IMG/VR virus record: IMGVR_UViG_3300048597_000118
Span: 1-64,000 of that record
Reading direction: 5' to 3' (one strand)
Source: a virus
Length of the DNA: 64,000 bases
Part shown: piece by piece, positions 23,201 through 54,802 of the stretch
Layout of the letters: each line of letters starts with the position of its first letter
How positions within the stretch are numbered: position 1 is the stretch's first letter
Notes under the pieces: model-generated
What the model was told of the DNA's origin: nothing
Database searches by the model: none
What the model saw: the letters and a program-made list of their open reading frames with translations, nothing else
Position numbers and translations under genes: made by a program

Positions 23201-23665
23201 TTATTTATACCTCAAACTAATATGGACAGGATTAACAACCGCAGTGGTGTTGTTGTCTGCTAATCCTGCAGTAGCAGCTATAGTCAAACCTGTAGTAAAT
23301 ACTTCGTGAGGCACACCAGAGGGTTCCATATAAAATGCACCAGGCACCACAGTGTTGCCCGGCGGAACCATTAATGTCAGCTTAGGAAGCGTAGTGCCGA
23401 CTACTACGTTGACGGCCAGTGCATCATAGAACTTGATATAAGAGCAAGTCGTATTTGGGTTGATAATATTCCAAGCAAACAGTTCTGTGGCTCCGGCTTT
23501 AATTTGTGCCGGTGTAGCAGTCAAGTTAGTCTGACGAGCACTTAATATGCCCGGGAACTCCTGTTGGAAGACAGACACATACGGGTCTTCTTCTACACCA
23601 GTGCCTTGGGCTTTAAGATAGACAAGGCTTACATTATCAACGTCTATAGCCTTTATGTTAGCCAC
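23201..23665 (-). CDS. Hypothetical beta-rich virion protein (154 aa)
   Basis: Tightly packed in the tail module; GTG start. Confidence 0.65.
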   Translation of the reverse strand: MANIKAIDVDNVSLVYLKAQGTGVEEDPYVSVFQQEFPGILSARQTNLTATPAQIKAGATELFAWNIINPNTTCSYIKFYDALAVNVVVGTTLPKLTLMVPPGNTVVPGAFYMEPSGVPHEVFTTGLTIAATAGLADNNTTAVVNPVHISLRYK

Positions 23666-50608: not shown

Positions 50609-51238
50609 ATGGAAAGTAACAATCCTACGTACCTATTAGCCACTTTAGACCAACTACGCTCATATCTAACAATTACAGAGTCCTCTTTCAGTGAAGGAGC
50701 TTTCAACTGCTCTCTAATAACCCGCAACACTAAAGTAGCACCTCTTAAATTTCAAGCCCTTGAATTAGCGAAGAAATTAACCTATGAGTGGGACCAACTA
50801 AAGACTAGAGTCAACGTATATCAAACATTAACCGACTTACCGGAGTCAAAAGACTTGGCTAGTGCCGCCTGCTTTTATTACTGCCACAGTCTTATCCTTG
50901 ACTCTGTGGGTTGGGCTAATTTTGTCTCAGGAAAGCTACGGTACCGCATATATGGTACCCCTTATATGCGAGAAGAATCAGAATTGTTAGACCGTAAAAC
51001 CGTAGTAGGTGCAGCAGCAATATTATACGGGCTGTCCATAAATGAATATATAGGCTCCCACTACACAGTCAAAACACCAGAGGGGAAAGAACACTTCCTT
51101 CGTGGGGCAGAAAATCATTGCTCTTGTAGTAGATACTCAATAGGACCCAATGGATTCTGCGAGCATTCTGCTTTAGGTAAAGTCTATTGTGATAATAGAG
51201 CTTTGCTGGTTAATACTGGTTTAGCCTCCTTCTTTTAG
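50609..51238 (+). CDS. SWIM zinc-finger protein
   Basis: YTVK...HCSC-x10-CEH; a 209-aa ORF that fills the gap between minus-strand genes. Confidence 0.8.
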   Translation: MESNNPTYLLATLDQLRSYLTITESSFSEGAFNCSLITRNTKVAPLKFQALELAKKLTYEWDQLKTRVNVYQTLTDLPESKDLASAACFYYCHSLILDSVGWANFVSGKLRYRIYGTPYMREESELLDRKTVVGAAAILYGLSINEYIGSHYTVKTPEGKEHFLRGAENHCSCSRYSIGPNGFCEHSALGKVYCDNRALLVNTGLASFF

Positions 51239-52708
51239 GTTCTTTTTGGGGTTGCCGGCGGCCGGCTTAGCTGGCTGTCGGTCTTGTTGTTGAGGCTTGA
51301 CATTACCAGTAGGTCTACCAGGCTCTGCTTTCTTAACCGCTTCACCTGTGGGCTTTTGTAGTGGCTCAATTAATATCTGTTTAATGAACTTAACGTCAGC
51401 AGAAGTTTGTTCACGCTCGCTAAGACCAGCCATTTGACGCACCATGGCCCAGTCCATACTATCCAATGGGTTAAGATAAGCCTTCTCAGTTAGACCAGTT
51501 ACTACTTGCATAGTAGCTACCCGGTCTTCAGGTCGGTCACTATATTGATTAGCAAAAGTAGGCGGTATCTTAGCCGAAGCCCTATTAAAATTCCATTGCT
51601 GTACAGTCATTAGACACTTCTGTACAACATGGTTGATTAAAGCCCGCCGCTCATTATAAATGGTCTTAAAGTAAACCTCCATACGACGCTCACGAGCAGC
51701 CTCTAAGGAGTTAGTGTCCATAATCAGAAAGTATGGCACTATATGCCGGATAGACTCAGCATCTACAAACCGGAGGGTGTTTAGAAACACATCACCAAAG
51801 TTGTCACTAGAAGGAATAGAACCAATTTCCGGCTTAAAGTCGTTACCAGCCTGAAGTTGCGGCAGTAGTATATGCCGTAAGTCTTCTTGGTTAATTTCTA
51901 GCTGCTCTTGGATATACTCCAGAGTAGTCTTTGGTCTTTCATTACCAGTGGCTGGGTCTAATATCATCTCATCTCCTAAAGAAGTAGAGGGAGACCTAAT
52001 CCAGGTAACACGTTTCCCTACGTCATTCATAGCGCTGACCATCATTTCGACCAGCACCTCTTTTAACCGGAACCACTTATACGAGGGCGCCACTAAAGAA
52101 TGACCATAGTAATTCCCATACTCAGAGTTAGACGCCAGATAGATATGCTTCCACATCTGTAATTGACGTTCACCCCTAGGGTCTAAAGTATGATGTTGGA
52201 AGATGCCAGACTTATGACCGCTTAACGTCTTAGAGCCTTCAGTTAAGAGCCCATCTTTATCCGGGTAAATAGTAATAGTGGTTGGATGATAAGTTAAAAC
52301 ATCTTTTAAGGTGAGCGCCCCAAAGGTTAAGTTATAGCAAACCTCAGATACAGAGAAGCCCGCCCAGTCCTTAGTAAACTGTATTTCCCGTAAAACTTGT
52401 TCCCATGCTTTTCCAGAGTGGTCTTCTAAGGCTAATAGACTATTACGGTGGAACTCTTGAATTTCTTCATCTGGATGAACTGGAAGCCCAATAGACCCAA
52501 CAATAGAGTTAACTCTTGTCTGTTCTGCTGAGTGAATGGTTAAGTCTTGTCGCACCATCTTTTCATAGGTACGGAGCTTAGCTTGTAGCGGTCGGTTTAA
52601 TAATAGTTGGTTAAACTGGCCTTGTTGTTGTAGTTTGTACCGTGCGCTGCGTCTATCTGCGTAGCGTATATCACCGGCCGGGAACGGATTAGTAGGTTGA
52701 GTAGGCAC
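51221..52708 (-). CDS. Portal protein (Mu gp29/DUF935-like)
   Basis: YEKMVRQDLTI..AGFSVSEV.Y..NYYGHSLVAPSYKWF; first gene of the head module. Confidence 0.88.
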   Translation of the reverse strand: MPTQPTNPFPAGDIRYADRRSARYKLQQQGQFNQLLLNRPLQAKLRTYEKMVRQDLTIHSAEQTRVNSIVGSIGLPVHPDEEIQEFHRNSLLALEDHSGKAWEQVLREIQFTKDWAGFSVSEVCYNLTFGALTLKDVLTYHPTTITIYPDKDGLLTEGSKTLSGHKSGIFQHHTLDPRGERQLQMWKHIYLASNSEYGNYYGHSLVAPSYKWFRLKEVLVEMMVSAMNDVGKRVTWIRSPSTSLGDEMILDPATGNERPKTTLEYIQEQLEINQEDLRHILLPQLQAGNDFKPEIGSIPSSDNFGDVFLNTLRFVDAESIRHIVPYFLIMDTNSLEAARERRMEVYFKTIYNERRALINHVVQKCLMTVQQWNFNRASAKIPPTFANQYSDRPEDRVATMQVVTGLTEKAYLNPLDSMDWAMVRQMAGLSEREQTSADVKFIKQILIEPLQKPTGEAVKKAEPGRPTGNVKPQQQDRQPAKPAAGNPKKNLKEGG

Positions 52709-52756
52709 AAGAATAGGAGTTTGTTTACTAAGCTCTACTGTTAATATTAGTTTATT

Positions 52757-52790
52757 GGCTAGCCCAGACTAACGATAAGCTGGGCTAACC
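52757..52790. terminator. Stem-loop between the portal start and the IS right end
   Basis: TAGCCCAG-N12-CTGGGCTA. Confidence 0.4.
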
Positions 52791-52821
52791 TATAAATAGT
52801 AGTACCGAGTCTGTTAAGCTC

Positions 52822-52995
52822 CTTGCTAAGGACCACTTAACTTGACATCCTCCACTTCCCTAAAGGGAAGGGATTCCTACGAAGCAAACAGATTTAACTG
52901 AATAGCTTTTCGGTGGGTTGACGCTTCACAGGATGCCGCTACCGAAGTAGTCTTACGCTTTCCTCCACGTCCGTTTTCAGTCTCCGAACGTCCTA
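52822..52995 (-). ncRNA. TnpB omegaRNA-like scaffold plus flanking guide
   Basis: Reads as a tnpB tail (GRSETENGRGGKRKTTSVAASCEASTHRKAIQLNLFAS*) running into the right-end hairpin and TCAA. Confidence 0.65.
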
Positions 52996-53553
52996 TGAAC
53001 TTACAGATACAATATTTGACCCCTGACATCGACTTTTGTGGCGGGACCAACCGTTAATTGTACTCAAAGGAATATCTAAATTTCTTGATATATCACTTTG
53101 CGTAACGCCTTCGTTTAAGAGACTTAACACAGTAGTGATGGTGGAGTCTCTATATTTACATTTACCGTGTTTTTCCCCCGTTACATATTTAGCTCGACCA
53201 TTCTTTAACTTATGGTCTGTGTTTGCTTGGGGCGTTACCCATTCCAGGTTAGAGACGCAGTTGTTTAATGGGTTTGAGTCTATATGATTCACCTGTAAAT
53301 TAGAGCTTATCGGTCTGCCGATAAACGTTGTGGCTACTAGCGTATGGACACATATATGCTTTTTGACAGCATTCTTACTTAAAGCTACGCAAGGATAACC
53401 TTTTCTAAGAGTAGGACTTAACTTTTTGCGTGGAGCATGTCTGTAAGAGCCTCCTTTAGCCTTAACCATCTTGTCCGTAGCGTAAATTGACCCATCAGAC
53501 CCGCACTCATAGAGTCCCTCATAACCTGCTATCGGTCTAAATTCTATTTCCAT
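52993..53553 (-). CDS. NUMOD4-HNH endonuclease with C-terminal HTH
   Basis: FRPIAGYEGLYE; VHTLVATTF..QVNHIDSNPLNNCVSNLEWVT..N; TQSDISRNLDIPLSTI. Confidence 0.92.
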   Translation of the reverse strand: MEIEFRPIAGYEGLYECGSDGSIYATDKMVKAKGGSYRHAPRKKLSPTLRKGYPCVALSKNAVKKHICVHTLVATTFIGRPISSNLQVNHIDSNPLNNCVSNLEWVTPQANTDHKLKNGRAKYVTGEKHGKCKYRDSTITTVLSLLNEGVTQSDISRNLDIPLSTINGWSRHKSRCQGSNIVSVSS

Positions 53554-53581
53554 AATTAATAGTTTAAGTCGTGATTATGTT

Positions 53582-53603
53582 ATTATAACAATCTGTACGT
53601 ACA
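53582..53603 (-). promoter_or_regulatory. Extended -10 promoter for HNH/omegaRNA and adjacent palindrome (putative RHH operator)
   Basis: TGTTATAAT on the minus strand at 53582-53590; perfect palindrome TGTACGTACA at 53594-53603. Confidence 0.5.
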
Positions 53604-53613
53604 TTGGCTACCC

Positions 53614-53751
53614 ATGGCAAAAGAAAGATTAAACCTGCGAATAGAAGTAGGGCGTTTAGATAAGTTAAGGAAGCTTGCGTCTAAGAAGAAAAAGACAATG
53701 ACACAGATAATAGAAGATTGGCTTGATACTCTTGATATAGATAAAGATTGA
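53614..53751 (+). CDS. Ribbon-helix-helix protein (45 aa)
   Basis: MAKERLNLRIEVGRLDKLRKLASKKKKTMTQIIEDWLDTL; below the ORF-track length cutoff. Confidence 0.8.
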   Translation: MAKERLNLRIEVGRLDKLRKLASKKKKTMTQIIEDWLDTLDIDKD

Positions 53752-53950
53752 GTTTCCGCCCAAGTTGTCTGTATCGCAAATAGTAAATGCCCTCAAGGGT
53801 GTCTCTAGTCGTCGCTATGGACAAGCTAATTTACCAAAGCCATACGGTAAGGATGCCCTCTGGAGTCCGTCTTATTTTGCTTCTAGTGTTGGCGGCGCAC
53901 CCATTAAAACCATTAGACTGTACATAGAAAACCAATTAAAGCCGTCCTAA
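53747..53950 (+). pseudogene. tnpA: 5'-truncated IS200/IS605 transposase
   Basis: EFPPKLSVSQIVNALKGVSSR..LWSPSYFASSVGGAP..YIENQ; the HUH motif and N-terminus are missing. Confidence 0.9.
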
Positions 53951-53998
53951 AGGACGGGGTTTTAAACCCATTCTTTTGATAATTAGGATTTCTCCTCA

Positions 53999-54802
53999 AT
54001 GAATCGTCTACCAGAAACTATCACTATCAGCCGTGAAGACCTTCCCTCCGGCGAGTATGATGTGATCCTTAAATGCCCGTACTTTGGAGATTGGCGTAAA
54101 GCTCGTAAACTTTACCCCAACGATATGGACTCCCAAGGTCGTCGCAAAAGCCCTGGTTATGCCGCCGAAGAACTCCTGCTCTGTCAGCAGATTGTTGATG
54201 TTGTAGACAAAGATAATCGCTCTGCTATGGGTCGCCGCCCTAAAGATGTTATTGACCGTCTTAAGTTATTCACTATCCCAGACCGTCAAGCTCTTCTAAC
54301 CATCTTTTTGGAATTGTTCTGGGTAGGTGCAGACCAGGCTAAACAAGCCCGCGATTTAGCCAATGAATTCATGGTGACTGCTGCTCTTACTTACACTATC
54401 GAAGCAGATAAAATGCCCATGGCTGGGGTCAGCGTTACCTATAATGCTGTTAACACTGGTACTCAAATGGCGGCAGACCGCCGTTATATCGGAGTGCAAG
54501 AACAAGGTTGCACCCTAGAAGAACTTCTATTTGCTACTTGTGTGGCAGCAGTAGATGGTGACCCAGTAGAGCAACCTAAAGACAGTATCAGTCTGTTAGA
54601 TGAATGGACTATCTCTGATGTTCAGTTTGCTAAGTTGGTCTTTGTTAACCAATTTACTTTAGATGAAGCCGGAGAAGACCGGGCAAAGGAAGCGGGAAAG
54701 CGCTACTTGGAAAAACTTGGTTTGAGCAAGCTCGCTTCAACGCCCGCACCCAAACCCAAGCAAACCTCCAAGCCGCCGGCCAACAATGTTCAAGAATTGT
54801 AA
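53999..54802 (+). CDS. Tail assembly chaperone (gpG-like)
   Basis: Two tandem similar halves (EELLLCQQI / EELLFATCV); slippery heptamer near the 3' end; precedes a giant ORF. Confidence 0.8.
   Translation: MNRLPETITISREDLPSGEYDVILKCPYFGDWRKARKLYPNDMDSQGRRKSPGYAAEELLLCQQIVDVVDKDNRSAMGRRPKDVIDRLKLFTIPDRQALLTIFLELFWVGADQAKQARDLANEFMVTAALTYTIEADKMPMAGVSVTYNAVNTGTQMAADRRYIGVQEQGCTLEELLFATCVAAVDGDPVEQPKDSISLLDEWTISDVQFAKLVFVNQFTLDEAGEDRAKEAGKRYLEKLGLSKLASTPAPKPKQTSKPPANNVQEL

Follow-up and report, generated by a model that had tools for sequence, protein, structure and literature searches.

A homing endonuclease gene in the tnpB slot of an Arc-type IS605 element from a putative cyanophage

Introduction

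Some IS605-family elements encode a small ribbon-helix-helix (RHH) repressor, Arc, on the tnpA strand, with tnpB divergent from arc and Arc binding the intergenic bidirectional promoter, and arc genes next to homing endonuclease genes have been noted in the same study (Moon, Zedaveinyte, Wiegand & Sternberg 2026, bioRxiv 10.64898/2026.09.24.754181), which gives no detailed account of a swap between the two kinds of nuclease gene. In addition, non-autonomous IS200/IS605 elements termed PATEs carry omegaRNAs that are used in trans (Meers et al. 2023, 10.1101/2023.03.14.532601). Here, we describe a 1137-bp IS200/IS605-family element in a 64,000-nt stretch of viral DNA (positions 1 to 64,000 of the IMG/VR record IMGVR_UViG_3300048597_000118; hereafter the window), in which the tnpB open reading frame (ORF) has been replaced by the gene of an HNH homing endonuclease related to I-HmuI. 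The element combines known kinds of building block, namely an Arc-type IS605 element, a PATE-like element and an I-HmuI-type homing endonuclease gene (HEG).

The layout matches that of the Arc-containing IS605 elements of Moon et al. in having arc (with tnpA) on one strand and the nuclease gene divergent from it, a short bidirectional promoter between them (Arc-bound in that study), hairpins at the left (LE) and right (RE) ends, and an omegaRNA at the RE. It differs in that the nuclease slot holds an I-HmuI-type HNH gene instead of tnpB, that only the C-terminal half of tnpA is present, and that the host appears to be a cyanophage. With the PATEs of Meers et al., the element shares the lack of a transposase and of TnpB, intact ends and a complete omegaRNA scaffold, so that transposition and any use of the guide RNA would depend on proteins supplied in trans; PATEs, however, are devoid of coding capacity, whereas the window element has two expressed-looking genes (arc and the HNH gene) besides a tnpA stub. 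I-HmuI of Bacillus phage SPO1 (PDB 1U3E) and free-standing phage HNH enzymes have the same NUMOD4-type N-terminal sheet, HNH core, helical linker and C-terminal helix-turn-helix (HTH), but I-HmuI resides in a group I intron and is only 24% identical to the window protein, whose gene lies in the nuclease slot of a transposon under a transposon promoter.

Two further comparisons are less close. The co-occurrence of an HNH domain and an IS200/IS605 omegaRNA in one element recalls IscB/HEARO, but IscB has a split RuvC domain with inserted HNH, a bridge helix, PLMP and TI domains and an upstream RNA, whereas the 186 aa of the stand-alone HNH protein are fully covered by NUMOD4, HNH and HTH, and are accompanied by a TnpB-type 3' scaffold and no RuvC sequence; a first-pass annotation of the locus, made by a model from the sequence alone, had rightly kept the two apart. 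IStrons (group I intron plus IS605/IS607) are likewise chimeras of two selfish elements that share IS605 ends; in contrast, the window element is intergenic and a search against Rfam revealed no group I intron.

Results

An I-HmuI-type endonuclease gene in the tnpB slot

The gene in the divergent tnpB slot encodes a protein with NUMOD4 (28.4 bits; cut-off 23.4) and HNH_3 (38.9 bits; cut-off 24.8) domains and a sub-threshold C-terminal HTH, matching PHROG 59 with E=5e-39 and I-HmuI, at the sequence level, with E=2e-9. Its AlphaFold model (pLDDT 90.7) has I-HmuI as the sole significant fold match (1U3E, E=3.6e-8), and the 177 aligned columns correspond to the whole protein. Furthermore, the residues corresponding to the catalytic His and Asn (H90, N102 and N111) are invariant in 45 homologs, which completes the set of features of an I-HmuI-like enzyme. 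In the model, no domain or part is left over for RNA binding, and the protein is most likely an ordinary phage-type, protein-guided homing endonuclease, with site-specific cleavage and homing predicted from its likeness to I-HmuI. Relatives were found in 1844 phage records, all with less than 60% identity; the closest relative, P0002, is 69% identical and encoded on a 1818-bp contig, and the next nearest reaches at most 51%.

Similarity to tnpB-containing elements begins at position 52993/52994 (blastn), i.e., at the stop codon of the HNH gene, and the closing helix of the omegaRNA scaffold starts at 52992, in line with the initial observation that this stop codon abuts a tnpB-type scaffold. 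The last residues of the HNH protein (176-186) are disordered in the AlphaFold model, and P0002 ends at about this position, i.e., earlier. Therefore, the tail (...SNIVSVSS, followed by the stop codon) was probably read from the junction or from tnpB-derived DNA until the first stop, which would also account for the stop codon abutting the scaffold; the last approximately 9 HNH codons may thus be tnpB-derived. Upstream, the foreign DNA begins no more than 28 nt before the HNH start codon, while downstream it extends to the last few codons. The comparison with relatives indicates that the replaced part of the tnpB ORF reaches from close to the start codon to a point shortly after RuvC-III. The idea that the first approximately 6 tnpB codons were kept upstream of the HNH start was dropped, as the alignment is too weak to support it.

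The coordinates of all features are compiled in Table 1.

Table 1. Features of the IS605-family element and its insertion site in the window
Feature	Position	Strand	Basis
I-HmuI-type homing endonuclease (NUMOD4 + HNH_3 + C-terminal HTH), 186 aa, tnpB slot	52993..53553	-	Pfam; PHROG 59; PDB 1U3E
arc, 45-aa RHH	53614..53751	+	homologs with 50-70% identity; function from Moon et al. 2026
Bidirectional promoter/operator, native	53554..53613	.	consensus scan; aligns with arc-tnpB intergenic regions of relatives
omegaRNA scaffold / RE, 151 nt	52842..52992	-	90% identical to scaffold behind intact 400-aa TnpB (L159); covariation
RE guide GAAT	52873-52876	-	conserved in all relatives
RE hairpin	52852-52872	-	part of RE
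RE cleavage site TCAA	52842-52845	-	conserved in all relatives
Predicted guide GTTAAGTGGTCCTTAGCAAG, phage DNA flanking RE	52822..52841	-	relatives diverge right after GGATGTCAA; flank matches L094 empty site
LE	53925..53978	-	72% identical to LE + tnpA of Chroococcidiopsis IS605
LE subterminal hairpin CCGTCC-TTTA-GGACGG	53942-53957	-	common to arc-tnpB relatives
LE guide tetranucleotide AAAA	53960-53963	-	pairs with target TTAT
Target / putative transposon-adjacent motif (TAM) TTAT, directly 5' of LE	53979..53982	-	L094 empty site AATTAT then GTTAATTGG; relatives TTAC
tnpA remnant, C-terminal 68 codons of Y1 transposase	53747..53950	+	Pfam Y1_Tnp positions 63-121 of 121, E=7e-14
tnpB remnant, last 38 codons + stop	52877..52993	-	codons 52880-52993; residues 363-400 of L159 TnpB, 87% identity (tblastn); 94% nucleotide identity to L087

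The arc gene and the divergent promoter

The small ORF divergent from the HNH gene resembles RHH proteins (DUF6364/CopG, below the Pfam threshold). Homologs were found in 48 of 401 sampled cyanobacterial genomes, often in multiple copies (up to 17 or more matches), and in 20 of the 30 loci that were fetched, the homolog lies divergently upstream of tnpB, mostly with a gap of approximately 55-110 bp. One cyanobacterial genome (L200) carries arc and tnpB together with a scaffold 80% identical to that of the window, and complete arc-tnpB elements of the same lineage are also present in 3 viral contigs (L220, L221 and L222); across L200, L221 and L222, scaffold identity to the window amounts to 78-80%.

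The intergenic region is conserved as well. On the minus strand, a consensus scan identified a -35 box (TAGCCA, 53610-53605) separated by a 17-nt spacer from a TG-extended -10 box (TATAAT, 53587-53582, within TGnTATAAT). In the relatives, an operator-like sequence (CTACCCAATGGCTACCC) is followed by TGnnATnAT a few bases before the tnpB start, and its counterpart in the window reads GGTAGCCAATG ... TGTTATAAT. Hence, the locus displays the arrangement typical of Arc-type elements, with a small RHH gene divergent from a nuclease gene across a short conserved promoter/operator, and Arc would be expected to bind and repress the 60-bp promoter of the window by analogy with the elements of Moon et al. 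2026. These homologs, together with the conserved promoter, led us to reject the idea that the RHH and HNH genes entered as a foreign two-gene cassette. Since arc and the promoter are native to Arc-type IS605, the foreign DNA consists essentially of the HNH ORF alone. The first-pass annotation had correctly listed the RHH gene, the truncated tnpA, the intact NUMOD4-HNH-HTH gene and its extended -10 promoter, all of which were recovered in our Pfam and promoter analyses; that the RHH gene and the promoter belong to the transposon had gone unrecognised.

Several side observations concern Arc and its promoter. In the arc-tnpB relatives (L196-L201 and others), the tnpB start codon lies approximately 6-8 nt past the -10 box, which suggests that their tnpB mRNAs are leaderless; the HNH start in the window lies 28 nt past the -10 box. 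Moreover, in 3 cyanobacterial genomes (L188, L189 and L205 from G075, G201 and G129, respectively), Arc homologs with approximately 53-62% identity are divergent from a gene starting MYGCQQNR..., which is a 432-aa ORF in L188, occurs in multiple copies and has no tblastn match to the L159 TnpB. It presumably represents a second, divergent TnpB-like lineage sharing the same Arc. Finally, an Arc homolog was found divergent from an IS630-like transposase reading frame (L193:1694-2706); the Arc lineage therefore also occurs beside other transposon types.

The omegaRNA scaffold

The scaffold family was found in 53 of the 401 cyanobacterial genomes. RNAalifold on 14 sequences predicted 32 pairs in 6 helices, with 90.1% paired as compared to 35-50% with slid partners; 17 pairs are changed on both sides, and none of 500 shuffles reached any of five measures. 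As the single-sequence fold is not exceptional (z = -1.3), the structure rests on this covariation. A long-range closing helix joins 5' GGACGUUC to 3' GGAUGUC beside the guide, and its first paired base is 52992, 1 nt past the HNH stop codon, so that the fold is complete. Differences from the nearest scaffold are all located in loops or are compensatory. The window thus retains what characterizes a TnpB omegaRNA, i.e., a conserved structured scaffold that extends over the 3' end of tnpB and terminates at the RE, followed by a variable guide, and the earlier proposal that the omegaRNA had been kept is borne out by the covariation-supported fold.

The same holds for derivatives that carry no HNH gene. 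Four other tnpB-less copies (L164, L169, L172 and L089) break 149-165 nt from the RE end and have unrelated DNA upstream, as compared to 151-153 nt in the window. In L164, the LE hairpin is joined directly to the scaffold, which makes it a PATE-like mini-element of the same lineage; in L169 and L172, the upstream sequence is unrelated, and in L089 the scaffold is cut by an apparent IS256-type element. Shorter scaffold stubs are also present (L003, L091 and L093). Because tnpB-less derivatives keep the same approximately 150-nt scaffold, its retention needs no explanation involving HNH, a point that the first-pass annotation had overlooked. In this family, retention of the whole scaffold is generally the norm for non-autonomous derivatives, and the clustering of the breakpoints shows where the natural 5' boundary of the omegaRNA family lies.

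One of these copies deserves a separate remark. In a Cyanobacteriota metagenome-assembled genome (JBEAQB010000110.1; L086/L089:1-272), the scaffold is cut 149 nt from the RE end and a divergent ORF start, MARKKQEPNRVDTLLDELLE, lies upstream, which we take to resemble an IS256-type transposase. The flank after TCAA (TGGCCCTCAGCAAG) matches positions 7-20 of the window guide (TGGTCCTTAGCAAG) at 12 of 14 bases, which may be due to chance or to target preference.

Boundaries, end signals and genomic setting

A related phage, L094, lacks the element and revealed an exact empty site when compared with the flanks of the element (portal protein 95% identical in amino acid sequence, flanks 73-76% identical at the nucleotide level). 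L094 reads GAGGAGAAATCCTAATTAT followed by GTTAATTGG (in a longer reading after the junction, GTTAATTGGTACC), i.e., AATTAT with the target TTAT and then GTTAA. On the minus strand of the window, GAGGAGAAATCCTAATTAT (...AATTAT) is instead followed by the element start CAAAAG (CAAAAGAATGGG), and the element end GATGTCAA (GGAGGATGTCAA) is followed by the flank GTTAAGTGG (GTTAAGTGGTCC). This comparison places the element at 52842-53978, inserted 3' of TTAT without target duplication, as is characteristic of IS200/IS605, and indicates that it is an insertion into phage DNA.

In IS608, guide tetranucleotides in the element pair with the cleavage sites, a rule that predicts compensatory changes when the target differs. 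Both ends of the window element carry subterminal hairpins and guide tetranucleotides that pair with their cleavage sites. At the LE, the guide/target combination is AAAA/TTAT in the window, whereas 9 of 10 arc-tnpB relatives have AAAG/TTAC; such a compensatory change is what the IS608 rule predicts and argues that a Y1 transposase placed the element at this site. At the RE, GAAT, the IS608 partner of TCAA, is located upstream of the RE hairpin in all copies, and 11 of 11 relatives with full scaffolds end in GGAGGATGTCAA and diverge immediately thereafter. The empty site and the relatives thereby corroborate the first-pass statement that both ends (AAAA/TTAT and GAAT/TCAA) are intact according to the IS608 rules. 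As a side observation, the isolated Microcystis phage Mic1 (L005:3000-3290; MN013189.1, approximately 23340-23625) harbors an unannotated LE-like hairpin, AATTGGGTTTGAAACCCCGTCCTTCTAGGACGG, that is 91% identical to the window LE, with a second GGACGG-type hairpin approximately 250 nt away, between two paralogous small genes; the two hairpins could be what is left of a PATE-like IS605 element in this cyanophage isolate.

The source record is a linear 101-kb IMG/VR virus record, approximately 68% complete. Among isolated phages, it has a single relative, a distant Microcoleus phage, and the IS-related matches of the window are cyanobacterial in every case, so that the record looks like a cyanophage. 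On one side of the element, at 51221-52708 on the minus strand, is a Mu-type portal gene, and on the other, at 53999-54802 on the plus strand, a gene for a 267-aa protein; the insertion lies in the divergent promoter region between them. GC content does not separate the parts of the element. A strong hairpin (TAGCCCAG...CTGGGCTA) occupies 52757-52790, in the stretch that separates the guide from the portal start; it has no T-run on either strand, and the equivalent spacer of the related phage lacks it. The sole Rfam match in 52000-54500, the rhtB sRNA, is a chance match from this hairpin (27.5 bits versus a gathering score of 55), and no intron that would point to a group I intron or IStron was returned for this region.

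Remnants of tnpA and tnpB

The tnpA remnant corresponds to residues 67-134 of an intact TnpA (L004; 78% identity, tblastn) and begins just past the HUH motif, so that the helix with the catalytic Tyr is kept and the HUH motif is gone. When intact relatives were used as tblastn queries, the N-terminal half of tnpA was not found in any frame, nor were further pieces of tnpA or tnpB in the element. Hence, no functional Y1 (HUH) transposase that would make the element autonomous is encoded. The tnpA half is located between arc and the LE, whereas in the relatives arc (ending ...EEKPS) runs into the LE hairpin. As for tnpB, only codons downstream of the RuvC-III DRDxNAA motif of the intact 400-aa TnpB remain, and a TnpB with a RuvC triad is absent, which agrees with the initial statement that no RuvC sequence is left. 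PF07282 (TnpB) was not found in the phage record, and neither tnpA nor tnpB was found elsewhere in this record or in a related provirus record.

Search for further copies

The element is single-copy in its own record. Among viral contigs queried with HNH, P0002 and a scaffold 20-mer, no second copy, no second junction and no close HNH relative was found, and the 401 cyanobacterial genomes contain no close HNH relative either (best match 39-45% identity). A metagenome scan with over-general peptide patterns returned only distant HNHs and missed P0002. Neither the scaffold nor Arc was found in 144 loci of HNH relatives (859 kb), and a search of these loci for tnpA and tnpB gave a single match, a full tnpB beside a distant HNH (L141). 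There, in L141:2454-4398 (IMGVR_UViG_3300031760_000290), the two genes share a strand, and 335 nt separate the NUMOD4-HNH gene (172 aa) from the full tnpB (363 aa) downstream of it. Conversely, HNH was found at none of 35 Arc loci (30 cyanobacterial and 5 viral), and the loci compared here revealed no recurrent landing site.

Discussion

Taken together, the locus is probably a non-autonomous Arc-type IS605 element that carries a protein-guided homing endonuclease and is moved by a host TnpA, with the scaffold surviving as the right end and possibly being usable by a host TnpB in trans. The layout comprises LE, tnpA C-terminal stub, arc, bidirectional promoter, cargo and omegaRNA/RE, and its origin is cyanobacterial. 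It looks like a homing endonuclease colonising an RNA-guided transposon, i.e., like nested selfish elements, and not like a new nuclease-RNA pair. In such a scenario, a homing endonuclease ORF would have displaced tnpB in an arc-tnpB element of a cyanobacterial IS605 lineage, through recombination that was either HEG-induced or illegitimate, and before or after this swap a host TnpA, i.e., a Y1 transposase acting in trans, would have placed the element at the TTAT site of the phage. The HNH protein, presumably expressed from the Arc-controlled tnpB promoter, would then act as a protein-guided homing nuclease: it would find DNA through its own NUMOD4 and HTH modules and nick or cut an allele without HNH, either in an element-free related phage or in intact tnpB copies, and repair would copy HNH in. 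The scaffold would persist as the RE and as a trans-usable omegaRNA module that acts only with a host TnpB, if at all; such a TnpB could, in principle, take up the guide carried by the phage and cleave the allele without the element.

Several points weigh against this reading. An HNH-scaffold or arc-HNH junction at another locus, for which the first-pass annotation had recommended searching, was not found in the collections searched, the P0002 locus not being among them. As the window is the only instance, the composite may not be mobile as a unit, and the swap could have taken place within the phage itself. Since TTAT differs from the TTAC of the family, a host TnpB may not accept the phage TAM. 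Furthermore, the record is only approximately 68% complete, and its absent portion may contain a tnpA or tnpB. Lastly, the near ORF-precise swap, with the scaffold 1 nt past the stop codon, is tidier than a random deletion, which leaves room for selection on an HNH-plus-scaffold unit.

It is possible, if doubtful, that the tnpB slot of Arc-type IS605 elements is a specific and repeatedly used target for colonisation by homing endonucleases, with the transposon (TnpA, TnpB and Arc) as their vehicle.

A different explanation, which we consider unlikely, is that the locus is a one-off decay product: an arc-tnpB(-tnpA) element in the phage, whose tnpB was later replaced by a phage HNH gene through illegitimate recombination, so that only HNH is functional and the ends, arc and scaffold are as yet uneroded fossils. 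The element is indeed a singleton in all collections searched, its tnpA is halved, the phage record contains neither tnpA nor tnpB, and a scaffold that is still 90% identical to a live copy may simply be young. On the other hand, arc is intact and the operator/promoter is conserved, scaffold differences are restricted to loops or compensatory changes, both end hairpins and guide tetranucleotides are intact, and independent derivatives have their breakpoints close together at the same scaffold boundary.

We give still less credence to the possibility that HNH substitutes functionally for TnpB, cutting the donor joint (element-free TTAT followed by GTTAAGTGG) by protein recognition and thereby restoring or spreading the element, which TnpA would move in trans. 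As is known from I-HmuI and the T4 mob/seg genes, free-standing HNH homing endonucleases usually cleave naive genomes close to the site where they themselves are inserted; HNH is located in the tnpB slot under the native tnpB promoter, and an element-free allele is present in the related phage. However, a protein of fixed specificity cannot follow the element to new sites and therefore cannot replace TnpB in general, the L094 site already differs from the window flank (GTTAATTGGTACC versus GTTAAGTGGTCC), and nothing in the data points to the joint or any other sequence as the HNH target. Of the related suggestion in the first-pass annotation, movement via TnpA in trans finds support in the ends and the exact target, whereas a takeover of the retention role of TnpB does not.

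A pairing in which the retained omegaRNA associates with the small HNH and steers it by means of the 20-nt guide, as the first-pass annotation had also considered, is very improbable: a single transcript would carry both, as the fold starts 1 nt past the HNH stop codon, and the scaffold is structurally complete, but HNH is a full-length I-HmuI homolog with two DNA-binding modules of its own and no extra domain, tnpB-less elements without any protein keep the same scaffold length, the 144 loci of HNH relatives lack scaffold and Arc, and the scaffold evolved to fit WED, REC and RuvC surfaces of TnpB that are absent here. Equally far-fetched is a broader version, in which HNH is recruited to the omegaRNA and either binds it directly or works alongside a host TnpB that has taken up the guide from the phage; if true, the element would be an RNA-directed HNH system of natural origin, or a gene drive between phages with two modes, protein-guided and RNA-guided. 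The element is thus not evidence for a new RNA-guided enzyme.

Regarded as a homing endonuclease within a non-autonomous transposon, the element is a natural case, exact to the base, of a transposon in a phage in which one selfish nuclease gene has taken the place of another, with regulator, promoter, ends and guide-RNA module intact. It provides a ready test system for the activity of HNH with and without the RNA, for a host TnpB with the phage-borne guide, and for TTAT versus TTAC as TAM. Moreover, it shows the modularity of the IS605 chassis (ends, Arc switch and omegaRNA), which can accommodate cargo different from TnpB, and together with the remark of Moon et al. 2026 (10.64898/2026.09.24.754181), it suggests repeated invasion of OMEGA transposons by homing endonucleases.

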